A stretch of DNA of 34,106 bases from Bacteroidales bacterium (GCA_021106655.1 JAIOTT010000066.1:1-34106); one strand, 5' to 3'. Positions 1-16,746 are shown, counted from the first letter of the stretch. A program made the numbers and translations. The notes: generated by a model not told the origin, from the letters alone.

Positions 1-1226
1 TGAATCTTGCCAATATGGGATTAAAAGTACTTCTTGTTGAAAAAGATTACTCCATAGGTGGAAAAATGATCCATCTGAGTAAAGTATTTCCAACACTCGA
101 CTGTTCAGCCTGTATCGCAACACCCAAAATTTCCGAAACAGCACGACATCCGAATATTACAATATTTACTTTTAGTGAAGTACGGGATATTGAAAAATCC
201 GGCAATACATATATTGCAAAAATCATTAAAAAGCCAAGATATGTTAAGGAAGAATTATGTACAGGATGTCAGGAGTGTGAATATGTATGCCCGGTTTATG
301 CACCGGATCAATATCAGTTCGATCTGGTTGGGCGAAAAGCAATATTTGTACCCTTTAGTTTAGCAAATCCAAGAGTAGCTGGTATTGATATTGAAAATTG
401 TATCCTATGTGGGGCTTGTGAAAAAATATGCCCAACGGAAGCTATTGATTTTACAATGGAAGCCGAAGAAGTTTCAATAAGTTTTAAGTCAGCAATTATT
501 GCCACAGGCTTTAACTTATTTGATGCCCGTAACAAACCACAATATGGTTTCGGGAAATTCAAAAATGTTGTTAACAGTATGCAAATGGAGCGTCATTTAG
601 TTCCAACACGGCCATTCAACGCTGTATTGAGGCCATCAGACGGGAAAATGCCGGATAATATTGCCTATGTTCTTTGCACAGGGTCAAGAGATAAATCAAT
701 TGGGAACCCTCTGTGCTCACAAATTTGTTGCATGTACTCAATAAAACAAGCTCAGTTATTAATGGGAGCATTGCCAATGGCTGATGTTACAATATACTAT
801 ATTAATATCAGAGCCTTCGGAAAGGGATTTTGTGAATTTTACCAGCAATCGAAAACAATGGGGATAGAATTTGTAAAAGGAAAAGTGGCCCAGATTACCC
901 AAACAGAAAAAGATGATCTAATAGTACGATACGAAGACATTTTTGAGGGAAAAGTAAAAGAAGCTAAACACGACCTTGTTGTCTTAGCAATTGGAGCACT
1001 CCCAAATCCGGATGTTCCGGATATGTTTAAAAACGAAAAGGTTGAATTAGGTGAATTTAAATATGTAAAACAGGTTGATCGCTTCGCATGTCCTGCAAAA
1101 ACAAGCATGGAAGGTGTTTTTGTTGCAGGAACTGCGGCTGTGCCACTTGATATTCCAGATTCCATTTTATCGGCCGGTGCAGCTTCATCTGAAGCCAATA
1201 GTTATATTAAGAAACTTGGATTATAA
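1..1226 (+). CDS. HdrA/QmoA-like FAD-dependent iron-sulfur oxidoreductase subunit (5' end lies outside the window)
   Basis: Frame 3 is open from the window edge. The sequence ..NLANMGLKVLLVEKDYSIGG is the tail of a dinucleotide-binding fold, so the real start is upstream. HdrA hallmarks are present: FPTLDCSACI, the inserted 2x[4Fe-4S] ferredoxin motifs CTGCQECEYVCP and CILCGACEKICP, and GNPLCSQICCMYSIK. TAA stop at 1224-1226. Confidence 0.8.
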   Translation, partial: NLANMGLKVLLVEKDYSIGGKMIHLSKVFPTLDCSACIATPKISETARHPNITIFTFSEVRDIEKSGNTYIAKIIKKPRYVKEELCTGCQECEYVCPVYAPDQYQFDLVGRKAIFVPFSLANPRVAGIDIENCILCGACEKICPTEAIDFTMEAEEVSISFKSAIIATGFNLFDARNKPQYGFGKFKNVVNSMQMERHLVPTRPFNAVLRPSDGKMPDNIAYVLCTGSRDKSIGNPLCSQICCMYSIKQAQLLMGALPMADVTIYYINIRAFGKGFCEFYQQSKTMGIEFVKGKVAQITQTEKDDLIVRYEDIFEGKVKEAKHDLVVLAIGALPNPDVPDMFKNEKVELGEFKYVKQVDRFACPAKTSMEGVFVAGTAAVPLDIPDSILSAGAASSEANSYIKKLGL

Positions 1227-1232
1227 AATAAT

Positions 1233-3176
1233 TTGATAATGAGTAACAAAATAGGAGTATATATTTGTCATTGCGGTAATAATATATCCGAGTATGTTGA
1301 TGTTGAAAGAGTTAAAGAGAGCGTGAAAAATGAGGAAGGGGTGTTTATTGCGCGAACGACTATGTTTGCGTGTGCTGATTCAGCCCAGACTGAAATAATT
1401 GATGATATAAAAAATAATGCACTTGATGGTATTGTAATAGCCTCATGCTCACCAAAGCTACACCTACAAACCTTCAGAGAGGTTGCCAAACGAGCTGGAT
1501 TGAATCCTTATAATTATGTTCAGGTAAATATCAGGGAACAAGGATCATGGGCACATTCGAATGATCCTGAAGGAGCTACAGAAAAATCTATTGGTTTAGT
1601 TAAAGCAGGAATTGCCAGAACTCGTGTCTCCAAATCACTTGAACCACTTACAATTCCGGCAAAAAATATCGTTTTAATTATTGGTGCAGGTATTGCCGGC
1701 ATGAGAGCTGCTATTGAATTAGCAGAGATGGGAACAAAAGTCTATATAATTGAAAGAGAACATTTCGTTGGTGGAAGATTGTCGCAATGGGGCGTACTAT
1801 GCTCACTTAATGAAACAGGGAAAGAACTAATTTCACGCATTTACAAAAGACTCAAGGAGTTAGATAATATCACCCTGTTCACCGGTGCAGATTTAATTTC
1901 CAAAACAGGTAGCAGTGGTAACTTTGAAGTGGAAATCAAAATTACTCCAAGGTATGTCAAATCAAAATGCGATCCCGAAAGCCTGAAAAATGCAATTGAA
2001 GCCTGCCCTGTTGAAGTTACTGATGAGTTTAATTTTCATCTGACAAAAAGAAAAGCAATATTTAAAAACTTCGAAAGTGAATTTCCTGAAGCTCCGGTTA
2101 TAAATATGGAAGACTGTACCCGCTGTGGTGATTGCCTTAAGCACTGCGACAGCATTGACCTTGACCAAAAAACCGAGATAATAAAATTAAAAATTGGAGC
2201 AATCCAGGTATGTACAGGTTTTGACCCCTATGAACCCAAAGAAGGGGAATTCGGATATAAAACAATTGACAATGTTATTACACTTCAACAGTTCAAGCGA
2301 TTGGTTGAGTTGAATAAAGACCAACTACTTTTCAAGGGGAAGGAAATTCATAATATTGCTCTTATATACTGCGTCGGAAGCAGGCAATTTGGCAAAATAA
2401 ACGGGAGTAACCAATATTGCTCACGATACTGTTGCACAGTGGCTATTCACTCATCCCTGGTAGTAGGAAAAAAATATAATGATATCCATTGCCTGCATTT
2501 TACACGAGGTGTGAGAACTTATGGAAAACAAGAATTAATTTATGATGAAGCATCTCAAAAAGGTGATATCTTTTTTCATTTTGATGAAAATACTCCTCCC
2601 ACGATTGAAAAATCAGGAAGCAAAACTATTGTTAAAGTAAATGATGTTTATACTGATCAAATAGAACTAGGTGTTGAAGCTGATCTGGTAGTACTTGTTT
2701 CAGGGATGGTTCCACGAAAAAATAATTCCTCGGTTGAAATATTAAAAACACCTGTTGGAAGAGATGGCTTTTTAAATGAAATACACCCAAAATTAAGGCC
2801 GGTTGAAACAGTTATTGATGGTGTATTTATTTCAGGTGCGGCACAAGGACCAAAAAACATTGAAGAAACAGTAAACTCAACGCTTTCTGCAGCATCAAAA
2901 GTAAATGCAATGATCTGCAGGGAAGAAATAAAACTTGAACCGACCATTGCAAAAATTAATGAAGACACTTGCGAGTGGTGTGGGAAATGTTCAGAAACAT
3001 GTCCCTTCGAAGCCATATCGCAAATAACTCATAACGGAAAACAAATAGCATCAATAATTACAACAAACTGTAAAGGCTGTGGAATATGTACACCAGTTTG
3101 CCCTGTCGATGCTATTGATGTTATTGGTTATACAAACGTGGAAATTGAAAATATGATCATGTCTTTGGCGAAATAA
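1233..3176 (+). CDS. HdrA/QmoB-like iron-sulfur flavoprotein (HdrA N-terminal Cys domain, FAD domain, C-terminal 2x[4Fe-4S] ferredoxin)
   Basis: 647-aa ORF. The track start at 1233 is TTG; the ATG at 1239 is more likely. Motifs: IGVYICHCGNNISEYVDV...ASCSPKLH...NIREQGSWAH (HdrA N-domain), IIGAGIAGMRAAIELAEMG (GxGxxG), YCSRYCC, CEWCGKCSETCP and CKGCGICTPVCP. Only 6 nt separate it from the upstream gene. Confidence 0.8.
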   Translation: MIMSNKIGVYICHCGNNISEYVDVERVKESVKNEEGVFIARTTMFACADSAQTEIIDDIKNNALDGIVIASCSPKLHLQTFREVAKRAGLNPYNYVQVNIREQGSWAHSNDPEGATEKSIGLVKAGIARTRVSKSLEPLTIPAKNIVLIIGAGIAGMRAAIELAEMGTKVYIIEREHFVGGRLSQWGVLCSLNETGKELISRIYKRLKELDNITLFTGADLISKTGSSGNFEVEIKITPRYVKSKCDPESLKNAIEACPVEVTDEFNFHLTKRKAIFKNFESEFPEAPVINMEDCTRCGDCLKHCDSIDLDQKTEIIKLKIGAIQVCTGFDPYEPKEGEFGYKTIDNVITLQQFKRLVELNKDQLLFKGKEIHNIALIYCVGSRQFGKINGSNQYCSRYCCTVAIHSSLVVGKKYNDIHCLHFTRGVRTYGKQELIYDEASQKGDIFFHFDENTPPTIEKSGSKTIVKVNDVYTDQIELGVEADLVVLVSGMVPRKNNSSVEILKTPVGRDGFLNEIHPKLRPVETVIDGVFISGAAQGPKNIEETVNSTLSAASKVNAMICREEIKLEPTIAKINEDTCEWCGKCSETCPFEAISQITHNGKQIASIITTNCKGCGICTPVCPVDAIDVIGYTNVEIENMIMSLAK

Positions 3177-3203
3177 TAATTTAATCCAATAAAACCTAAA
3201 AAA

Positions 3204-3593
3204 ATGGAAACAACAACTGATATTATTAAGGAAAACAAAACAGTTCCTGAAGAAGCAAAAGAGAAAAAGCTCGAGAAAATAAAAGAAGGTCCAAAAACCA
3301 TTTCTCAAAACCCTGAAAAAAGGGTAATGACAATTGATGTTATTAAGAAAAAAAGAACTGTCCCTAAAGAAATACATGAGAAAAGGAAAGAGTTCTTAAG
3401 AATGAAAAAATTGATACTTAATTCATTAAAAGAGGGCCCAAAAACTATTCCTCAAATTGCAAAGGAAACCTCTGTTCCGGACATAGAGATAACATATTAT
3501 TTGATGACCCTAAGAAAATTCAGAGAAGTCATTACAGGTGAATTAGATGATAATGATGAATACTTTACTTACGAATTAAATAATAATAAGTAA
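3204..3593 (+). CDS. Small Lys/Glu-rich protein with an internal tandem duplication and a C-terminal winged-helix-like segment
   Basis: 129-aa ORF between the HdrA-like and QmoC-like genes; its stop is 2 nt before the next start. Repeat 1 is aa 5-35 (TDIIKENKTVPEEAKEK..KEGPKTISQ) and repeat 2 is aa 43-84 (TIDVIKKKRTVPKEIHEK..KEGPKTIPQ). LILNSLKEGPKTIPQIAKETSVPDIEITYYLMTLRKFREV resembles a wHTH. Confidence 0.6.
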   Translation: METTTDIIKENKTVPEEAKEKKLEKIKEGPKTISQNPEKRVMTIDVIKKKRTVPKEIHEKRKEFLRMKKLILNSLKEGPKTIPQIAKETSVPDIEITYYLMTLRKFREVITGELDDNDEYFTYELNNNK

Positions 3594-3595
3594 TA

Positions 3596-4723
3596 ATGGA
3601 GAAAATTGATCTTGAATTTTCAAAATCCCTGAAAAAATATGGAGCAGTTGACATTAGTCCTTGCTTTAACTGTGGAAACTGCACAGCGATTTGCTCTCTT
3701 TCAACAGAAGATAATTCGTTTCCAAGAAAAATGCTAAGATATAGCATACTTGGGTTACAAGATCGAATTTCCAGCTCCGTCGATCCATGGCTTTGCTATT
3801 ATTGTGGAGAATGCAGTGAAACTTGCCCCAAAGAGGCAAATCCCGGCGAATTAATGATGGCACTACGGAGATTTCTGGTTGCCCAATATGATTGGACTGG
3901 CCTTGCCAGAAAATTTTATACTTCGAAAATATGGGAAATGGGTGCTATACTATTTCTTGCCCTTATTATTCTGGCTATATTTGTTGTTTTCCACGGACCC
4001 CTCACTACAGAATTAACAGCTGAAGGTGGAGTGAAACTTAATACCTTCGCTCCATGGCACCAAATTCATATAGGCGATTGGATAATGGCTGGATTCCTCG
4101 CATTCTTCTTGCTATCTAATGTATTTAATATGTACTTAAAGATACTTAGAAATGACAAAAAAATAAAAATTCCTTTTCGCTTATATTTCACTGAGCTTAT
4201 TTCACTGGTCAGAAATTTTATAACCCAGGAGAGAATTAAGGATTGTGAAAAAGGAAAAGTATATTGGCTTATTCATCTTTTACTTATGTCGGGTTATGTG
4301 ATCTTATTTACAATGATTGTAGGTTTCCTGGGATGGTTTCAAACTGATAACATCTATGAATGGTGGCATCCGCAAAGATTATTGGGTTATTATGCAACGT
4401 TTGGATTGCTGGTGGGATGTGTATATTTCTTTATCGGAAGAATAAAAAAAGATAAAGAGCTCAATAAACATTCTCATTACACTGACTGGACTTTCCTGGT
4501 TTTGTTATTTTTTACAACATTAACCGGAATATTACTTCATTTTTTCAGAATCTATGGAATGCCAATGGCAACATATTATATGTATGTAATTCATCTAATG
4601 GTACTTTTCCCAATGTTGATGATAGAAGTACCGTTTTCTAAATGGTCACATCTTGCCTATCGCCCTGTTGCTATTTATTTTTCAAACGTTCTTAACAAGG
4701 CAAAAGAATTACAGAAAAGTTAG
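3596..4723 (+). CDS. QmoC-type subunit: HdrC-like 2x[4Fe-4S] N-domain fused to an HdrE/NarI-like multi-TM (putative heme b) domain
   Basis: 375-aa ORF with CFNCGNCTAICS and CYYCGECSETCP, followed by about 6 hydrophobic helices carrying conserved His residues (WHQIHIGDW, HLLLMSGY, LLHFFRIYG, HLMVLFPM, FSKWSHLAYRP). TAG stop. Confidence 0.75.
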   Translation: MEKIDLEFSKSLKKYGAVDISPCFNCGNCTAICSLSTEDNSFPRKMLRYSILGLQDRISSSVDPWLCYYCGECSETCPKEANPGELMMALRRFLVAQYDWTGLARKFYTSKIWEMGAILFLALIILAIFVVFHGPLTTELTAEGGVKLNTFAPWHQIHIGDWIMAGFLAFFLLSNVFNMYLKILRNDKKIKIPFRLYFTELISLVRNFITQERIKDCEKGKVYWLIHLLLMSGYVILFTMIVGFLGWFQTDNIYEWWHPQRLLGYYATFGLLVGCVYFFIGRIKKDKELNKHSHYTDWTFLVLLFFTTLTGILLHFFRIYGMPMATYYMYVIHLMVLFPMLMIEVPFSKWSHLAYRPVAIYFSNVLNKAKELQKS

Positions 4724-4766
4724 GTCTCCTTGCCTAAATATGTTGGCCGGAATTAAGAAAAAACCA

Positions 4767-4774
4767 TACTTTTG
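4767..4774 (+). promoter_or_regulatory. Bacteroidota-type -7 box (TAnnTTTG)
   Basis: TACTTTTG lies 32 nt upstream of the ATG at 4806. Confidence 0.4.
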
Positions 4775-4805
4775 TTTGCTATAAAGTAAATACTTTCTAG
4801 CATCA

Positions 4806-6410
4806 ATGGCTGAACCCTTTTACATAGACGCTATCTGGCTTAGCTTAGCCTTTCTCAGTGGAATCCTCGCTAAAAGAGTAAATCTCCCCCCTTTAATAGG
4901 ATTTTTGCTTACCGGAATCATCCTGAATGCATCTGGTTTAACACATGGACATATTAGTGGAGTTTTGCATACACTCTCCGATTTGGGCGTTATGTTGCTG
5001 CTATTTACTATTGGCTTAAAAATAAGTATTAAATCTTTGATAAAACGGGAAATCTGGGCTGCTGCAAGCATCCACATGATAATTTCCGTATTAGCTATTG
5101 GGAGTTTTGTTTTTTTTCTAAGTTATTTGGGGTTACGCCTTCTAAGCGATATTTCTATTAAAAGTGCAATGCTCATTGGTTTTGCATTGAGTTTTTCAAG
5201 CACTGTATTTGTTATAAAAATTTTAGAGGAGCGAGGTGAACTGAATTCCTTTCATGGTAAGATAGCAATTGGAATACTGGTAATACAAGATATTTTTGCC
5301 ATTATTTTTCTAACGGTATCAACAAGTGAATTACCAAGTCTTTGGGTTCTGACAATACCTGTTTACCTATACATTATTCGTTTTGTTCTTTTCAAAATAT
5401 TGAACATGACAGGACATGGTGAGCTGCTTACTGTATTTGGATTTTTTGCAACTTTTGTTACAGGTGCCCTTAGTTTTGAATTAGTCGGACTGAAACCCGA
5501 TCTGGGTGCCCTGATAATAGGAATGCTGCTGGTAGGGCATAATAAGTCAAAAGAACTTTTTGAACGTATGATGAGTTATAAGGATTTTTTCCTTATTGCC
5601 TTCTTTATCAATATCGGCCTGTCGGGAATACCTACATGGAATATGATCTTTACCGCTCTTATCTTATTGGCTTTTATCGTTTTTAAAGGAGGTTTATTCC
5701 TGATAATTTTCTCGCGTTTTAATTTAAGATCACGAACAGCATTTCTCTCTTCAATAAGCCTTGCAAATTTTAGTGAATTTGGTTTAATTACAGGGCTTGT
5801 TGGTGTACAATTAGGTTTAATAAGTAATGATTGGGTGATTATTATTGCCGTACTTATGTCCTTCTCTTTTTTAGTCTCATCCCCATTAAATAATTATGCA
5901 CATAATCTCTTTAATAAATTCAAACCGGCATTAATGAAGCTTAATAGTGGACAAATGTGTGTTGATGACGAACCTGTTTTTTTGGGTAATGCAAATTATC
6001 TTATTATCGGAATGGGGAGTATAGGGCAATCAGCATACACCTACATTAACTCAGAACATAACACTAAAGCTATCGGAATTGATTATGATCATGAATTAAT
6101 AAAGAAGATTCAAAAGCAAAACATAAATGCTCTTTGGGGGGATGCAACCGACAGTATATTCTGGGAAAATGTTGATTTATCAAAAATTAAGATGATATTA
6201 TTCACTATGAGTGATCATGTTTCTAATATTAACTCCATTAAAGAAGTAGTTAAATTTAGTAACAGAAGCTTTAAGATTGGGGCTATCTGTCATTATCTTG
6301 ACGAAAGAACTGATTTTGAAGAATTGAAAGTCGATTATATTTTCAATTATAAAGTCCATCTGGGTAGTGACTTTGCGCATGGATTTCTTGGTGATTTTAA
6401 TAAAGTTTAA
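4806..6410 (+). CDS. CPA2-family monovalent cation:proton antiporter with C-terminal RCK/TrkA-N domain (KefB/KefC-like)
   Basis: 534-aa ORF. About 12 TM helices are followed by a Rossmann-like IIGMGSIGQSAY (GxGxxG) soluble domain. Confidence 0.75.
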   Translation: MAEPFYIDAIWLSLAFLSGILAKRVNLPPLIGFLLTGIILNASGLTHGHISGVLHTLSDLGVMLLLFTIGLKISIKSLIKREIWAAASIHMIISVLAIGSFVFFLSYLGLRLLSDISIKSAMLIGFALSFSSTVFVIKILEERGELNSFHGKIAIGILVIQDIFAIIFLTVSTSELPSLWVLTIPVYLYIIRFVLFKILNMTGHGELLTVFGFFATFVTGALSFELVGLKPDLGALIIGMLLVGHNKSKELFERMMSYKDFFLIAFFINIGLSGIPTWNMIFTALILLAFIVFKGGLFLIIFSRFNLRSRTAFLSSISLANFSEFGLITGLVGVQLGLISNDWVIIIAVLMSFSFLVSSPLNNYAHNLFNKFKPALMKLNSGQMCVDDEPVFLGNANYLIIGMGSIGQSAYTYINSEHNTKAIGIDYDHELIKKIQKQNINALWGDATDSIFWENVDLSKIKMILFTMSDHVSNINSIKEVVKFSNRSFKIGAICHYLDERTDFEELKVDYIFNYKVHLGSDFAHGFLGDFNKV

Positions 6411-6427
6411 TTACCTGGAAACCCCGG

Positions 6428-6448
6428 CTGAGCGGAGTTTCCTGACTT
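6428..6448. repeat. Degenerate half-copy of the GCTGAGCGGAGT hairpin element
   Basis: gctgagcggagtttcctgact matches 14823-14843 (gctgagcggagtctccagact) at 19/21 positions. It sits 18 nt after the antiporter stop, and the 3' stem half is missing. Confidence 0.6.
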
Positions 6449-6880
6449 ACAAAAACATGAAGCATTTCTTCTGCTGTCCATCTTGATTTCATTCACCGTA
6501 GGTGATATAAACCGGTAGCCTGCAGAATAGAGAAAAGCCATTATACCTCGTAGAGGTTTCATAAAGTTTTTTTGTTTTTTCATATTCTTTTTTCTTGATA
6601 AAAAAGAATCAAAAAATCAAGACTGATTATAATTCACTAAGAACCTCTAAGCAGCAATAATATGCGCAATCCAAGCCGCTATTTTATTATTTTATGCATC
6701 ATGATTTTATTTAAATTACATATTTCGTTTCTTTAAGTTATCTATACTAATCCCGCTCGTGGATTGCTTTTAATTCGCAAACATTTTTATTGCTCCAAGA
6801 GATTCTAAGAGTATTCTAAAATGTCATTTCTATTACAAAGTTCACCTTTCCCTGATAAGCATAACATAAGAAAAATAAAC

Positions 6881-6909
6881 GTTAGGCGAAGCGTCCACGC
6901 TTCGCCTAA
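6881..6909. repeat. REP-like perfect hairpin (12-bp stem, TCCA loop); a 26-nt core is repeated at 11739-11764
   Basis: TTAGGCGAAGCG-TCCA-CGCTTCGCCTAA. The string GTTAGGCGAAGCGTCCACGCTTCGCC is identical at both loci. Confidence 0.85.
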
Positions 6910-7142
6910 AATAAGCAATCTGCTAACCTACTAAACAAAATAACACACCCAAGATCCAGAACCCCATTAAAAAAATTCATTATTGCGTTAACGAGATATT
7001 AAGAAATTTTCAATATATTTGTGAAATAATTAACAACAAGTATAGACAATTCATATTACATGGGTCTACTCAATTGTTGTGATTTGCGATCTGACATAAA
7101 CTAAATAACACCTATTGATTAGTAAATCTATAGAAGTTTATT

Positions 7143-7150
7143 TAGTTTTG
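7143..7150 (+). promoter_or_regulatory. Bacteroidota-type -7 box (TAnnTTTG)
   Basis: TAGTTTTG lies 18 nt upstream of the antitoxin ATG at 7168. Confidence 0.45.
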
Positions 7151-7167
7151 TATTAAAACAATAAGAT

Positions 7168-7401
7168 ATGAATATTCAGACAGAAAAATTAAACTTAATC
7201 GAATGGATTTCAAGACTTAATGACACATCCTTATTAGAGAAACTTCGAAAAATCAAGGACGATTATTCTAAATCAACGGATTGGTGGGATACATTAAAAA
7301 TCGAAGAAATAGAATCTATAAATAGAGGATTAAAGGATTTTGAAGAAGGCAGAGTTCATTCTCATGAAACTGCTCGGGAAATTTATGAAAAATACCTATA
7401 A
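7168..7401 (+). CDS. Type II antitoxin-like small protein (addiction module component)
   Basis: 77-aa acidic helical ORF. It overlaps the downstream RelE/ParE-like reading frame by 17 nt, which is classic TA organisation. Confidence 0.6.
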   Translation: MNIQTEKLNLIEWISRLNDTSLLEKLRKIKDDYSKSTDWWDTLKIEEIESINRGLKDFEEGRVHSHETAREIYEKYL

Positions 7402-7690
7402 ACTTATTTGGTCTGATGAAGCACTAAATAACTTAAAAGAAATACTTGACTACCTAGAGCAACGTTGGACTAACAGAGAAATTAAGAGATTCTCTCAATT
7501 ACTTGATTATTAACTAAAACTGATTGAAGATAATCCATTATTATTTGCAAAGAGTGATAAATCTAACGGGATGAGAAAATCAGTACTATCAAAGCAGACA
7601 ACAATTTATTATCGTATAATTAATTATGAAATTCGTATAATAACTTTATATGATAATAGGCAAAACCCTAATAAATTGAGAATTAAATAA
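7385..7690 (+). pseudogene. RelE/ParE-family toxin interrupted by an in-frame TAA at codon 43 (7511-7513)
   Basis: ATG at 7385. The translation MKNTYKLIWSDEALNNLKEILDYLEQRWTNREIKRFSQLLDY-stop-LKLIEDNPLLFAKSDKSNGMRKSVLSKQTTIYYRIINYEIRIITLYDNRQNPNKL continues in the same frame to the TAA at 7688-7690. The ..YYRI..I.I..L.D.RQNP tail is typical of the family. Confidence 0.7.
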
Positions 7691-7956
7691 AACACAAGTC
7701 GGTTAAGCAAAGTCTCCAAAATCACTTACCTAACATCCCACTCTCAAGCCCTCTTACCGAATAATGAATTTCATAGTATTAAAAAATGAGGATGTGATCT
7801 ATATCAAAAATCGCTAACCAACAATCGAATATCAAAAATCCTGTTACAATTGTTCCCTCCTGTTTTTTGCTTTTCTTTAATGGATAGTAGTGGTTCAATT
7901 ATTAAGTAAAAGTAAAAGTAAAATTTAAAAAACTGTTTTTTATATTCCAAATTTTC

Positions 7957-7964
7957 TATTTTTG
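7957..7964 (+). promoter_or_regulatory. Bacteroidota-type -7 box (TAnnTTTG)
   Basis: TATTTTTG lies 26 nt upstream of the AOR ATG at 7990. Confidence 0.45.
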
Positions 7965-7989
7965 TATCATCAAAATAAAACTTTCAAAT

Positions 7990-10146
7990 ATGGATATTAA
8001 TAAATTAAAAGCAGCGCATAAATCTTTAAAGAAGTTTAAATATGATATTCCTGTTATCGACAGAGGATATGCCAATAAAACATTGTATATTAATGTTGGC
8101 GATAACGAAATAAAAGAAAAACCGGTAACTAAGTTAATGAAGGATAAGTTCATTGGTGGTAAAGGTTTTGGTTTAAAATTATTGTGGGAAGGTACAAAAC
8201 CTGACACAAAGTGGAATGATCCTGAAAATGAGATCATCATTTCAGGTGGTCCTATTTGTGGTATTACACAATATTCCGGTACAGTAAAATCCCTGGTGGT
8301 AAGTATTTCACCGCAAACAAACTCTGTTATTGATAGTAACGTTGGTGGTTATTTCGGGCCTTTTTTGAAATTTTGTGGATTTGACTCCCTTGAGCTTCAG
8401 GGAAAAGCTGAAAATGATATCATAATATATATTGATGGCATCAAAGGTGAAATAGAAATTTTTGAAGCTCCGGAAGAGGCTATCGACAGTCATATTCTTG
8501 CCGAACAACTCACTGAAATGTTTGCTGATGATGAGAAGGACAGGAAAAATGTTGCTGTTGTATCAGCAGGTAAAGCTGCCGACAATTCACTTATCGGGAT
8601 GCTTAACTTTAGCTTTTTTGATGTCAGAAGAAAGAAAGCCAGACTAAAACAAGCAGGCCGTGGAGGTATTGGAACTGTATTCAGAGATAAAAAGATCAAG
8701 GCACTTGTTACTAAAATCGGTGGAGTTAAAGGTAATATGAACAATGTAGTAGATCTTAAGGCTATTATTGAGAGAGGGAAAATCTTTAATAAGGAAATGA
8801 GAGACCTTGATGATTCTCAGGCTGAAATGAGAACAAAAGGAACTGCCCACCTCACTAATGTTATGAATGATTATGACCTTCTACCAACAAATAATTTTAA
8901 GTTTGGTAAGCATGAAGATGCATATAAAATTCATAGCGATATATTAAAAAAGGACTATTTTACTCAAGGTGTCCCGGATGGATGCTGGCACGGATGTAAT
9001 ATGTCATGTACCAAAGGTGTTGATGATTTTACAATCAAAACAGGGCCTTATAAAGGTCAGGTTGTTCTTGTTGACGGGCCGGAATATGAAAATGCCGGCG
9101 GATTAGGTTCAAACTGTGGAATATTTGATTTTGATTATATCGTAGAGGCTAATTTCTACTGCGACACATACGGCAGCTGTACAATTTCCTGGGGTACATT
9201 GCTGGCATTTATTATGGAATGTTTTGAGAATGGTATAATAAATGAAGAAATAACAGGTGGGCTCAAGCTAAATTTTGGAAATGCTGACGCAGCTATTGAG
9301 CTCATGCACCAGTTAGCCAGAGGAGAAGGATTCGGGCTTATTGCCGGTCAGGGTACTCGCAAAATGAAGGAGATCTTCGTTAAGGAATATGGCGCAGATC
9401 CAAACTTCTTACAGGATATTGCAAGGGAAAATAAAGGACTCGAATATTCTGAATATGTTTCAAAAGAATCTCTTGCTCAACAAGGCGGATTTGCAATGAC
9501 AAATAAAGGCCCACAACATGATGAAGCATGGCTGATCTTTATGGACATGGTAAATAACCAAATCCCAACTTTCGAAGATAAAGCCGAAGCATTACACTAT
9601 TTCCCTATGTTCAGAACATGGTTTGGATTGGTAGGATTATGTAAGCTGCCATGGAACGATGTTGAACCTGTAAATAATGCCGAAACAGACGAACCCGCAA
9701 AAGTTTCCGAACATGTTGATAATTATGTGACAGTCTTTAATGCTGTAACAGGATTAAATATTCATAAAGAAGAACTTATCAGACAATCTGAAAGAGTATA
9801 TAACTACCAACGTATCTTTAACCTTAGAAGAGGATATGGGACAAGAAAATGGGATGCACAGCCTTATAGAGCAGCAGGCCCTGTAACAACAGAAGAATAT
9901 GAGTCAAGAACAGAAAGATATGACAAGCAAATGAAAGAACTCATTGGTGTAGACCCAACAGATAAAACTGTTGAGGAAAAAGTTGATATAACCCGTAAAT
10001 ACCGTGAACAACAATATGAAGACCTTTTAGATGCTGTTTATAAGAGAAGAGGCTGGAATAACAACGGTATTCCTACTATTGAACACTTGAAAAGCCTTGA
10101 GATGGATCTTCCGGAACTAACTGAATTAATTAAAGAACATCTGTAA
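7990..10146 (+). CDS. Aldehyde:ferredoxin oxidoreductase family (tungstopterin enzyme)
   Basis: 718-aa ORF. The N-terminal signature is DRGYANKTLYINV...FIGGKGFGLKLLWE. Other motifs: QAGRGGIGTVFRDKKIKALV, a Cys cluster GCWHGCNMSC, EYENAGGLGSNCGI, CDTYGSCTISWG and a C-terminal YKRRGWNNNGIPT. Confidence 0.85.
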   Translation: MDINKLKAAHKSLKKFKYDIPVIDRGYANKTLYINVGDNEIKEKPVTKLMKDKFIGGKGFGLKLLWEGTKPDTKWNDPENEIIISGGPICGITQYSGTVKSLVVSISPQTNSVIDSNVGGYFGPFLKFCGFDSLELQGKAENDIIIYIDGIKGEIEIFEAPEEAIDSHILAEQLTEMFADDEKDRKNVAVVSAGKAADNSLIGMLNFSFFDVRRKKARLKQAGRGGIGTVFRDKKIKALVTKIGGVKGNMNNVVDLKAIIERGKIFNKEMRDLDDSQAEMRTKGTAHLTNVMNDYDLLPTNNFKFGKHEDAYKIHSDILKKDYFTQGVPDGCWHGCNMSCTKGVDDFTIKTGPYKGQVVLVDGPEYENAGGLGSNCGIFDFDYIVEANFYCDTYGSCTISWGTLLAFIMECFENGIINEEITGGLKLNFGNADAAIELMHQLARGEGFGLIAGQGTRKMKEIFVKEYGADPNFLQDIARENKGLEYSEYVSKESLAQQGGFAMTNKGPQHDEAWLIFMDMVNNQIPTFEDKAEALHYFPMFRTWFGLVGLCKLPWNDVEPVNNAETDEPAKVSEHVDNYVTVFNAVTGLNIHKEELIRQSERVYNYQRIFNLRRGYGTRKWDAQPYRAAGPVTTEEYESRTERYDKQMKELIGVDPTDKTVEEKVDITRKYREQQYEDLLDAVYKRRGWNNNGIPTIEHLKSLEMDLPELTELIKEHL

Positions 10147-15073: not shown

Positions 15074-15610
15074 ATGGATTCAAAAAATAATACAATTGAT
15101 ATTGCTGAAGAGATCATTGTGAGTAGAATTCACAATATCAGAGGTAAACAGGTCATGCTCTCCCATGATTTAGCTGAATTGTATCAGGTTGAAACGAAGG
15201 TATTGAATCAACAAGTTAAAAGAAATATCGGGAAGTTTCCTGAGAGATATATGTTTCAACTTACTCAGGAAGAATACAGCCGTTTAAGGTCACAAAATGT
15301 GACCTTAAATAGGGGGCAGCACATGAAATATTTGCCTTATGCTTTTTCTGAGCATGGTATATTAATGTTGTCAAGTGTTCTGCGAAGTGATAGAGCTGAT
15401 AAGGTTAACATGTTAATCATTGATACTTTTGTCAAAGTAAGGGAATTAATGTACATACATAAAGATATTATCCACCAGCTTGAACAGGTACAAAATAAAC
15501 TTACAGAACATGACAATCATATCCTTGTCATCTTTGAATATTTAAAACAATTTGAAAAGTCAAAACAATTAGAGCAAGAATACAAAGACAGAAAACGGAT
15601 TGGATATTAG
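15074..15610 (+). CDS. ORF6N-domain (KilA-N-like) DNA-binding protein
   Basis: 178-aa ORF. IRGKQVMLSHDLAELYQVETKVLNQQVKRNIGKFPERYMFQLTQEEYSRLRSQ...YLPYAFSEHGILMLSSVLRSDRA closely follows the ORF6N consensus as I recall it. Confidence 0.8.
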   Translation: MDSKNNTIDIAEEIIVSRIHNIRGKQVMLSHDLAELYQVETKVLNQQVKRNIGKFPERYMFQLTQEEYSRLRSQNVTLNRGQHMKYLPYAFSEHGILMLSSVLRSDRADKVNMLIIDTFVKVRELMYIHKDIIHQLEQVQNKLTEHDNHILVIFEYLKQFEKSKQLEQEYKDRKRIGY

Positions 15611-16713
15611 CAATAACGATTCAACAACTCAATAAACTCAAACCTCTGATTCCGCAATTGTGGCTCAAAACCTGCCTCTCTGATCGCCTCCTGAATTCCA
15701 GGAATATCGAATTGGTGATCAGCACCTGCTTTTGAGACAACATTCTCCTCTATCATCACCGAACCAAAATCATTTGCCCCGCCATGAAGACAAAGTTGAG
15801 CAGTCTCCTTGCCTACTGTTAACCAAGATGCCTGTATGTTGTTTATATTAGGAAGCATTATCCTGCTTATAGCGATCAATCTGACATACTCATCAGCCAT
15901 AACTTTATTGAAAACACCATATCGTTTTTTCAAAACTGTCCCTTCAGCCTGAAAAGGCCAGGGAATAAAAGAAACAAAACCTATAGCATCTACCGGTTTT
16001 TCATTTTGTACTCTCCTGATTGCCACCAGGTGCTCCATACGTTCAGCAATAGTTTCAATGTGTCCGAACATCATTGTAGCAGATGTTGAAATACCCAGGT
16101 GATGAGCTGCCCTCATAACATCCAGCCACTCTTTTGCTGTGCATTTATTCCGAGAGATCTTCGAACGAACTCTCTCAACAAGTATCTCGGCACCGGCTCC
16201 GGGCAAACTGTCCATTCCCGCTTCAATAAGAGTAGTCAATATTTCTTTATAGGATTGCTTTTCCATTTCCGACAGATGAACTATCTCAGGTGGGCCTAAA
16301 GCATGTAGCTTTAAGTCAGGAAAAAAAGTCTTCAGATCCCTGAATAACCTTAAATAGAAATCAAGTCCAAGCTCAGGATGCATGCCTCCCTGTATTAGTA
16401 ATTGCTTTCCTCCATAACTATATAGTTCTTCAATCTTTTTTTTATACTGATCCAAAGTTGTGATATAAGCTTCAGGGTGATTTAAGGATTTATAAAAATT
16501 ACAGAACTGACATCCAGAAACACAAACATTTGTAATATTTACATTCCTGTCGATGATCCATGTTACAATTTTATCAGGATGTAACTCTTTTCTAATGCTA
16601 TCAGCAATCAGCATTAATTCAGATGTCGGTGCATTCTCAAAAAGGAAACAGGCTTCCTCAACCGATATTTCCTGTTGATCCAATGATCTATTATATAGCT
16701 TTTCAAGATTCAT
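15607..16713 (-). CDS. Radical SAM enzyme of the MqnC/MqnE/CofH family (futalosine-pathway menaquinone biosynthesis type)
   Basis: CVSGCQFCNFY is a CxxxCxxC cluster. LIQGGMHPEL, SLPGAGAEIL and ATMMFGHIET are also present. The ATG at 16713 (MNLEKLYN) is preferred over the TTG at 16740. The stop overlaps the ORF6N stop region by 4 nt, convergently. I cannot separate MqnC from MqnE by eye. Confidence 0.7.
   Translation of the reverse strand: MNLEKLYNRSLDQQEISVEEACFLFENAPTSELMLIADSIRKELHPDKIVTWIIDRNVNITNVCVSGCQFCNFYKSLNHPEAYITTLDQYKKKIEELYSYGGKQLLIQGGMHPELGLDFYLRLFRDLKTFFPDLKLHALGPPEIVHLSEMEKQSYKEILTTLIEAGMDSLPGAGAEILVERVRSKISRNKCTAKEWLDVMRAAHHLGISTSATMMFGHIETIAERMEHLVAIRRVQNEKPVDAIGFVSFIPWPFQAEGTVLKKRYGVFNKVMADEYVRLIAISRIMLPNINNIQASWLTVGKETAQLCLHGGANDFGSVMIEENVVSKAGADHQFDIPGIQEAIREAGFEPQLRNQRFEFIELLNRYC
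15640..15690 (-). repeat. Direct repeat copy B, inside the live 3' end of the radical-SAM gene
   Basis: The minus strand reads EAIREAGFEPQLRNQRF. See copy A at 14769-14819. Confidence 0.85.
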
Positions 16714-16746
16714 GTAATGTAATTCAAATAGAGGCAGCAAAATTAC

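Follow-up and report, generated by a model that had tools for sequence, protein, structure and literature searches.

A TusA-linked operon for a Qmo-type flavin and iron-sulfur membrane complex in a Bacteroidales genome, with a proposed role in electron exchange with carrier-bound sulfur

What does a Qmo-type redox complex do when no gene of sulfate reduction lies downstream of it? The question is raised by a 34,106-nucleotide (nt) stretch of DNA from a Bacteroidales bacterium (GCA_021106655.1, JAIOTT010000066.1:1–34106), here called the window, which makes up the entire contig C405 in an assembly of 517 contigs with 85.6% completeness. Its first 4723 nt carry four open reading frames on the same (+) strand. 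They encode a QmoA-like flavoprotein with an HdrA core (3–1226, 5′ end cut by the contig end; ~433 amino acids at full length), a QmoB-like full-length HdrA homolog (1233–3176; 647 amino acids, aa), a small winged-helix protein (3204–3593; 129 aa as annotated), and a QmoC-like subunit (3596–4723; 375 aa). Both this layout and the intergenic gaps of 6, 27, and 2 nt are as given in a first-pass annotation made by a model from the sequence alone. That annotation read the genes as a ferredoxin/quinone module unrelated to adenosine 5′-phosphosulfate (APS) reduction and possibly supplied by a tungsten aldehyde:ferredoxin oxidoreductase (AOR) encoded downstream. Our analysis leads to another assignment. 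The genes probably encode a quinone-linked flavin/iron-sulfur (FeS) membrane complex that is paired with the sulfur carrier TusA and exchanges electrons with menaquinone and ferredoxin, being neither the partner of APS reductase nor tied to the AOR.

As position 1 of the window is the end of a contig, the module as seen in it is incomplete. The missing part was located through a related contig from another sample, L034, whose QmoC is 94% identical to that of the window and on which a divergent crp gene, tusA, an FlpD-family gene, hdrA (433 aa), hdrA (645 aa), a 90-aa gene, and qmoC follow one another. A BLAST search with the upstream region of L034 against the window's own genome led to contig C284 (3116 base pairs), which ends where the window begins. 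Read in the window direction, C284 contains a divergent crp/fnr-type gene, tusA for a 102-aa protein (62 bits with Pfam TusA), a gene for a 130-aa member of the MvhD/FlpD family (90 bits with Pfam FlpD), and the QmoA-like gene up to codon 19. L034, which is 87 to 89% identical, is colinear with C284 and the window. Measured against it, the gap between the two contigs is 19 nt (~7 codons), and the reading frame is kept; the assembly break at the C284 end falls in a run of eight G within the GxGxxG motif that binds flavin adenine dinucleotide (FAD) in the QmoA-like protein. By this reconstruction, window positions 1–4723 are the last four genes of a putative six-gene operon: tusA, mvhD-like, QmoA-like hdrA, QmoB-like hdrA, winged-helix gene, and qmoC-like, with the crp/fnr-type regulator gene transcribed divergently. 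The same six-gene order is found in loci L033, L034, and L035. The four genes are therefore as first described, but they are not the whole module, two further operon genes being on C284. The first-pass annotation had named aprAB or sat immediately upstream as the arrangement that would make this a canonical Qmo locus; with crp, tusA, and the mvhD-like gene in that place, such an arrangement is excluded. The ratio of nonsynonymous to synonymous substitution rates (dN/dS) against L034 is 0.07 to 0.33 for all six operon genes; set against that lineage, they evolve under purifying selection.

Both flavoproteins matched HdrA structures in the Protein Data Bank (PDB) with E values of 1e-101 to 1e-121. 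Methanogen Hdr was the only such system among the solved structures recovered by this sequence search, which returned no Qmo complex. Against the NCBIfam model HdrA2, the QmoA-like protein scored 434 bits and the QmoB-like protein 531 bits, both under the family cut-off. The QmoA-like protein aligned to HdrA residues 162 to 562 (PDB 5odc_A and 9sfi_A) and keeps FPTLDC together with both CxxCxxCxxxCP motifs of the inserted ferredoxin. The QmoB-like protein aligned over residues 6 to 639 with residues 5 to 643 of HdrA from Methanothermococcus (5odc_A; E 2e-121), and it has an N-terminal Cys domain, an FAD domain, an inserted ferredoxin, and a C-terminal 2×[4Fe-4S] ferredoxin (Pfam Fer4_21 at 573–629). 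One cluster motif of its inserted ferredoxin is complete and the first has two of four Cys; the Cys of the FPTxDC position is replaced. The division of HdrA features noted at first pass, with FPTLDC and the inserted ferredoxin in one paralog and the N-terminal Cys domain and C-terminal ferredoxin in the other, thus agrees with the alignments. It had also been noted that the larger subunit appears to lack the MvhD-like C-terminal domain of classical QmoB. A Pfam search of the 647-aa protein indeed gave no FlpD/MvhD domain match, but the function is not missing from the operon, being encoded separately upstream by the FlpD-family gene.

The QmoC-like protein matched the whole NCBIfam qmoC model (NF038018; 5–362 of 360 positions as given) at 218.6 bits, the model's cut-off being 300 bits. 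It consists of an HdrC-like 2×[4Fe-4S] head and a part with a weak NarI match and six hydrophobic segments. Its predicted architecture is accordingly that of QmoC, an HdrC-like head fused to a multi-helix, diheme-type membrane domain, in line with the HdrC/HdrE-NarI fusion first proposed for this gene. The eight FeS Cys are invariant in 90 of 90 homologs; His227, His333, and His352 are nearly universal, canonical QmoC included, and the fourth His ligand is ambiguous among H258, H294, and H315. A quick maximum-likelihood tree with moderate support for deep branches placed the window QmoC within a Bacteroidota TusA-linked clade that adjoins a Krumholzibacteriota TusA-linked and a Bacteroidota hydrogenase-linked clade; canonical QmoC formed a very long branch.

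To see which genes accompany this QmoC elsewhere, we scanned one genome per species for QmoC-like homologs and obtained 80 loci (47 to 70% identity), whose surroundings were classified with profiles built from the proteins of this genome. In 45 of them, tusA and an mvhD-family gene lie 3.5 to 6.5 kilobases (kb) upstream on the same strand (TusA type). Another 18 have the Mvh arrangement (hydrogenase type), eight are short-cut loci with a winged-helix gene, and nine are other or cut. Loci of the TusA type come from Bacteroidota, Krumholzibacteriota, Chloroflexota, Verrucomicrobiota, Planctomycetota, and Desulfobacterota, and 30 of the 45 also have a DsrE-like gene. A winged-helix gene stands directly 5′ of qmoC in 40 of the 45, compared with none of the 18 hydrogenase-type loci, and the sister QmoC clade (52 to 58% identity) has hydrogenase genes, mvhDGA, where tusA stands in the TusA type. 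Many loci also have YeeE-type importers, periplasmic rhodaneses, and a porin close by; sulfur importers and carriers of this kind adjoin the operon on contig C97 of this genome and loci in Chloroflexota. Neither aprA nor aprB was found near the QmoC-like gene in any of the 80 loci. This tabulation of gene neighborhoods, which the first-pass annotation had proposed, leaves one half of its reading in place: the module is not an Apr partner. The other half, in which the module links ferredoxin and quinone and has nothing to do with sulfur, is not supported, TusA being a conserved partner and often joined by a DsrE-like protein.

The MvhD-like protein differs from its hydrogenase-linked counterparts in its cysteines. 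It does not have the N-terminal CxxC or the three more Cys columns that all 18 hydrogenase-linked MvhD proteins have, while a C-terminal CxxC occurs in 47 of 47 TusA-linked MvhD-like proteins and in none of the 18 hydrogenase-linked ones. This CxxC may provide replacement cluster ligands or form a redox-active disulfide.

The winged-helix protein matched HTH_5 weakly and no other Pfam or NCBIfam family. In its AlphaFold2 model (mean predicted local distance difference test score, 80.9), residues 1 to 39 are disordered and residues 40 to 125 form a winged helix. A fold search with the model gave generic MarR, ArsR, and Z-alpha matches only (best E 1.4e-3). At E ≤ 1e-10, the family comprises 325 clusters among 1.84 billion representatives. 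In 10 of the 48 marker-positive genomes of the order described below (G073, G154, G070, G117, G121, G181, G009, G172, G045, and G173) and in three of the 80 loci (L040, L042, and L058), the winged helix is fused to the C terminus of the QmoB-like protein in open frames of 666 to 746 aa. These fusions are evidence, in our view, that the winged-helix protein is a subunit and not a free-standing regulator. Its identification with a particular known regulator or with a DsrD-like factor was rejected, there being no fold match at E ≤ 1e-3 and the fusions pointing to a subunit. Codons 1 to 41 of the gene (window 3204–3326) are a diverged tandem copy of its own N terminus that is not found in 30 homologs, and the ATG at 3327 (88 aa) is for this reason the likelier start. 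The tusA gene on C284 also begins with an in-frame tandem duplication of its own N terminus (reverse complement 2339–2455; 55 nt, 51 of 55 identical). The duplication in the winged-helix gene is the older and more diverged of the two, and neither is present in L034, despite its 87 to 89% identity.

The genome itself offers a natural comparison, for a search with the qmoC model found four full-length QmoC-like genes in four Qmo-type loci: one Apr-linked, one hydrogenase-linked, and two TusA-linked. The canonical locus (C414:3485–5683 and C334:2320–7898) encodes aprB, aprA, qmoA, qmoB, an MvhD-like piece, and qmoC; AprA (776 bits) and the C334 qmoC (399.2 bits) are both above their cut-offs. Beyond its QmoB frame (574 aa), and 54 nt away from it, lies a separate MvhD-like frame of 118 aa; either a genuine split or a frameshift introduced in assembly could account for this. 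The hydrogenase-linked locus (C262:11411–19873) has the order crp, hdrA (605 aa), qmoC-like, hdrA (578 aa), mvhD, mvhG, and mvhA, with hypF, hypD, and hypE upstream. The operon of the second TusA-linked locus (C97:3209–15611) runs from a second tusA through genes for MvhD-like, QmoA-like, QmoB-like, and winged-helix (93 aa) proteins to a qmoC-like gene, and ahead of this operon are crp, tusA, a YeeE-type transporter gene, four rhodanese-like genes, a porin gene, and a DsrE-like gene. Between crp and tusA on C97 lies a perfect FNR-type box, ATTGAT-ATAG-ATCAAT; the crp/tusA spacers of C284 and L034, unlike that of C97, have no clear common palindrome.

The cytoplasmic subunits of the window operon have their closest counterparts on C97. 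Identity between the two operons is 69% for QmoA, 61% for QmoB, 70% for the MvhD-like protein, and 59% for the winged-helix protein, but only 35% for QmoC. The closest paralog of the window QmoC in this genome is the hydrogenase-linked copy on C262 (53%), and the C97-type QmoC forms a separate clade in the tree. A decaying duplicate of the C97 operon was ruled out as an explanation of the window genes by their intact frames, kept cofactor Cys, and dN/dS values. The window subunits are only 27 to 34% identical to the genome's canonical subunits. Since four such loci coexist in one genome, it is the partner module that differs among them. APS reductase is already served in this genome, as its own canonical qmoABC adjoins aprA.

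The distribution of these systems was also assessed in 200 other species genomes drawn evenly from the same order. The operon is a common one in anaerobic Bacteroidales: its winged-helix marker was detected in 47 of the 200; two copies occurred in only 2 of the 48 marker-positive genomes, this genome and G092. AprA exceeded its cut-off in 11 of the 200 genomes, 9 of which also have the operon marker, and is lacking in 38 of the 47 marker-positive ones. DsrA was found in none of 201 genomes of the order in a search made without a positive control, and a TIGR00339-type Sat in only one AprA-positive genome. With AprA in 11 of 200 genomes and DsrA in none, the order seemingly has APS reductase and Qmo without the Dsr pathway.

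How such a complex might work can be outlined from homology, the solved Hdr structures, and the literature on Qmo. The two HdrA paralogs would pair into one asymmetric unit resembling the HdrA dimer, with FAD and [4Fe-4S] clusters, in which only the QmoA-like subunit could supply the bridging FPTLDC Cys. QmoC would connect this unit to the menaquinone pool by way of two [4Fe-4S] clusters and, probably, a pair of b hemes, and the C-terminal ferredoxin domain of the QmoB-like subunit would be the port for ferredoxin. The winged-helix protein would be a further subunit of the complex. The MvhD-like protein would take the place that MvhD has between substrate module and HdrA, the module here being TusA and, in many relatives, TusA together with a DsrE-like protein. 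Because the substrate module is TusA, often with DsrE, the substrate would most simply be a persulfide on the carrier Cys. Two electrons would then be exchanged between the sulfane sulfur of the TusA persulfide and flavin, and confurcation or bifurcation would couple this exchange to menaquinone and ferredoxin.

The direction of this exchange is less certain than the partnership itself. We give about an even chance to a reductive reaction in which menaquinol and reduced ferredoxin convert imported sulfane sulfur to sulfide. This direction is slightly favored because importers, periplasmic rhodaneses, and a porin are present at many loci and because a sulfur-oxygenating module is missing, no HdrB, Dsr, or sHdr catalytic module being encoded in the operon. 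The reverse is possible, though we regard it as somewhat less likely. In that case the complex would oxidize sulfide or a protein-bound thiol/persulfide couple, load TusA, and bifurcate electrons to menaquinone (downhill) and ferredoxin (uphill), in parallel to its hydrogenase-linked sister. The MvhD-like protein does occupy the position of the donor module in Mvh-, Fdh-, and Flx-Hdr complexes, and the operon is enriched in the AprA-positive genomes of the order, most of which have its marker. The closest QmoC clade is linked to hydrogenase, in a cluster type that has been read as H2 bifurcation (bioRxiv 10.1101/2023.09.08.556235), and a Cloacimonadota cluster of Hdr, rhodanese, TusA, and transporter genes has been read as oxidative (PMC8542988). 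Sulfide, however, needs no importer, and ferredoxin reduction would be close to equilibrium by our own estimate from standard potentials. The TusA-bound sulfur would also have no evident fate, as searches of this 85.6% complete genome did not find Dsr, sHdr, or DsrC/TusE. A role that is neither reduction nor oxidation of carrier-bound sulfur is given a smaller chance still.

Two other explanations were weighed, and both appear very unlikely. In the one put forward by the first-pass annotation, a sulfur-independent ferredoxin:menaquinone module, possibly bifurcating, would reoxidize ferredoxin reduced by the neighboring tungsten AOR. The complex has a ferredoxin-type domain and a quinone-facing subunit, and the AOR gene lies 3.3 kb downstream on the same strand. 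Yet between the module and that gene lie a Kef-type antiporter gene and another ~1.6 kb of sequence, and an AOR fragment stands near the module in only 1 of the 80 related loci, where it is on the opposite strand. The 94%-identical L034 ortholog is followed instead by TP_0789-like and MMPL genes and the L033 ortholog by fur and ahpC, and it is tusA and the mvhD-like gene that are conserved operon members across phyla. With AOR near the module in only 1 of 80 loci, the link is not supported, and coupling to the AOR was rejected on synteny. The other explanation holds that this is a second, divergent Qmo for the genome's APS reductase, encoded away from aprBA and comparable to type II Qmo as known from Vulcanisaeta and Ammonifex. 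In its favor, the two flavoproteins resemble HdrA, as do those of type II Qmo (PMC10504309); AprBA is encoded in this genome, and the operon is usually present in those genomes of the order that have AprA. Against this, a complete canonical qmoABC lies directly beside aprA on C334, most marker-positive genomes of the order lack AprA, and aprAB is near none of the related loci.

Several observations tell against the TusA-linked complex, or against its working in the reductive direction, and have to be set beside the evidence above. TusA of the window lineage has the motif RYCPES in place of GxxCPxP, and the operon of this genome has no DsrE gene. No recognized catalytic site for sulfur chemistry, whether a CCG/HdrB domain or a molybdopterin subunit, is encoded in the operon, and the genome's CCG proteins are encoded only on the unrelated contigs C235 and C279. 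The joining of C284 to the window relies on colinearity with L034 rather than on reads, and the function is deduced for the whole family from homology and gene context. MvhD-type proteins in known HdrA complexes are on the electron-donor side, which favors oxidation. The AprBA-QmoABC module, also encoded in this genome, serves sulfur oxidizers as well as sulfate reducers. Finally, standard potentials make menaquinol alone too weak a reductant for persulfide; because of this, reduction to sulfide would need a low-potential co-donor, that is, confurcation, which Ramos et al. in 2012 reportedly proposed for canonical Qmo.

If the complex does reduce carrier-bound sulfur, a more specific role can be suggested, although only as a speculation that we hold to be improbable in its full form. 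The complex would be a flavin-based confurcating or bifurcating sulfane-sulfur:menaquinone/ferredoxin oxidoreductase, a respiratory enzyme so far unrecognized, by which "fermentative" Bacteroidales and several other anaerobic phyla respire or disproportionate zero-valent sulfur or thiosulfate over a quinone-linked route without Dsr, Psr, or sHdr; in genomes like this one it would work with the orphan AprBA-QmoABC. In disproportionation, a rhodanese-type split of thiosulfate would give TusA persulfide and sulfite; Apr together with canonical Qmo would oxidize the sulfite, while reduction of the persulfide would fall to the window complex. Should the electron exchange proposed further above hold, even without this specific role, many Bacteroidales held to be plain fermenters, as well as members of at least five other phyla, would exchange electrons between the quinone pool and carrier-bound sulfur. 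An unrecognized enzyme would be added to anoxic sulfur cycling in sediments and digesters, and the HdrA-like type II Qmo complexes would gain the function that the literature leaves open.

The rest of the window is of less direct bearing. Downstream of the module are the Kef-type antiporter gene, which was not found as a neighbor at any of the 80 related loci, the AOR gene (7990–10146), genes for a tungstate/molybdate ATP-binding cassette transporter, and housekeeping genes; as first reported, there is no apr, sat, or dsr gene among them. At 15607–16740, the − strand encodes a radical-SAM protein whose C-terminal domain is of the CofH/MqnC type (207 bits), and this MqnC-like gene indicates a putative futalosine route to menaquinone. 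A scan for promoters and terminators in window 1–8200 gave no more sites than shuffled sequence. Past crp, C284 contains fragments of a ThiS-like gene (with a GG end) and a ThiF/MoeB-like gene (reverse complement 509–1175), a neighborhood not shared with L034. At L040:5222–7972, the QmoA-like protein (917 aa) has an inserted GltD/NfnB-like NAD(P)H module (Fer4_20 and Pyr_redox_2). With an NAD(P)H module inside the QmoA-like protein of other Bacteroidales, the third redox partner is exchangeable.

Among known systems, canonical (type I) QmoABC shares with the window complex two HdrA-related flavoproteins and a fusion subunit with HdrC-like and NarI/HdrE-like parts, encoded in a tight operon, and the quinone link is likely common to both. 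The two differ in the score of QmoC, which at 218.6 bits falls short of the cut-off of 300 that the genome's canonical qmoC (399) exceeds, in their low subunit identity, and in the lack of aprBA synteny at the window operon; by these three measures, membership in canonical Qmo is ruled out. They differ further in that canonical QmoB has a C-terminal MvhD-like domain, whereas the window operon encodes a separate MvhD-like protein with different cysteines, an extra winged-helix subunit, and TusA as partner. Neukirchen and colleagues split Qmo into type I, the canonical form, and type II, in which the A and B subunits are close to HdrA (PMC10504309). Type II combines HdrA-like QmoAB with QmoC and has been described from Vulcanisaeta moutnovskia and Ammonifex degensii (PMC10504309 and PMC8477390); it also occurs in organisms without Apr or Dsr, where its role was left open (PMC10504309). 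In similarity, the A and B subunits of the window stand nearer to HdrA than to QmoA and QmoB of type I, which fits type II, but characterized hosts tie that complex to sulfate reduction, whereas the window operon is tied to TusA.

The Mvh-HdrA-QmoC ("Mvh-Qmo-Hdr") clusters of Ca. Methanoglobus, read as bifurcating H2 electrons to menaquinone and ferredoxin (bioRxiv 10.1101/2023.09.08.556235), and the similar cluster on C262 resemble the window operon in their sister QmoC clades, two complementary HdrA paralogs, and, in Bacteroidota, an adjacent crp/fnr-type regulator gene. Unlike it, they have the order hdrA, qmoC, hdrA, mvhDGA, a true MvhD with the full Cys set, a [NiFe] hydrogenase, and no winged-helix gene. 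In the MvhADG-HdrABC and Fdh-MvhD-HdrABC complexes of methanogens (PDB 5odc, 8rvu, 7bkb, and 9sfi), HdrA corresponds to the QmoB-like protein from end to end, HdrC to the head of QmoC, and MvhD to the MvhD-family adaptor. The window complex would differ from these in its membrane anchor and in dividing the functions of HdrA between two paralogs. As HdrB is missing, it should also have no noncubane clusters or heterodisulfide site. The operon does not encode an HdrB with two CCG domains, as HdrABC would require, and its MvhD-like protein does not have the Cys set, N-terminal CxxC included, that defines MvhD. The features of the TusA-linked operons, namely the full six-gene order, the C-terminal CxxC, and FPTLDC, are all found on C284 and the window. 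A last comparison is with the sHdr-LbpA system of sulfur oxidizers, a soluble system with HdrB1/B2, HdrC1/C2, lipoate-binding proteins, and a relay of TusA, DsrE, and rhodanese. Here, too, an Hdr-type complex is genetically coupled to the sulfur transferases TusA and DsrE, but none of HdrB1/B2, HdrC1/C2, and the lipoate-binding proteins is encoded in the window operon. In Cloacimonadota, likewise, Hdr genes stand beside those for a rhodanese-type sulfurtransferase, TusA, and a sulfur transporter (PMC8542988). A literature search found no paper that describes or tests an operon of tusA, mvhD-like, hdrA, hdrA, winged-helix, and qmoC genes or its TusA link, and it is this link to a sulfur carrier, together with the winged-helix subunit and the altered MvhD-like protein, that distinguishes the operon from canonical QmoABC.

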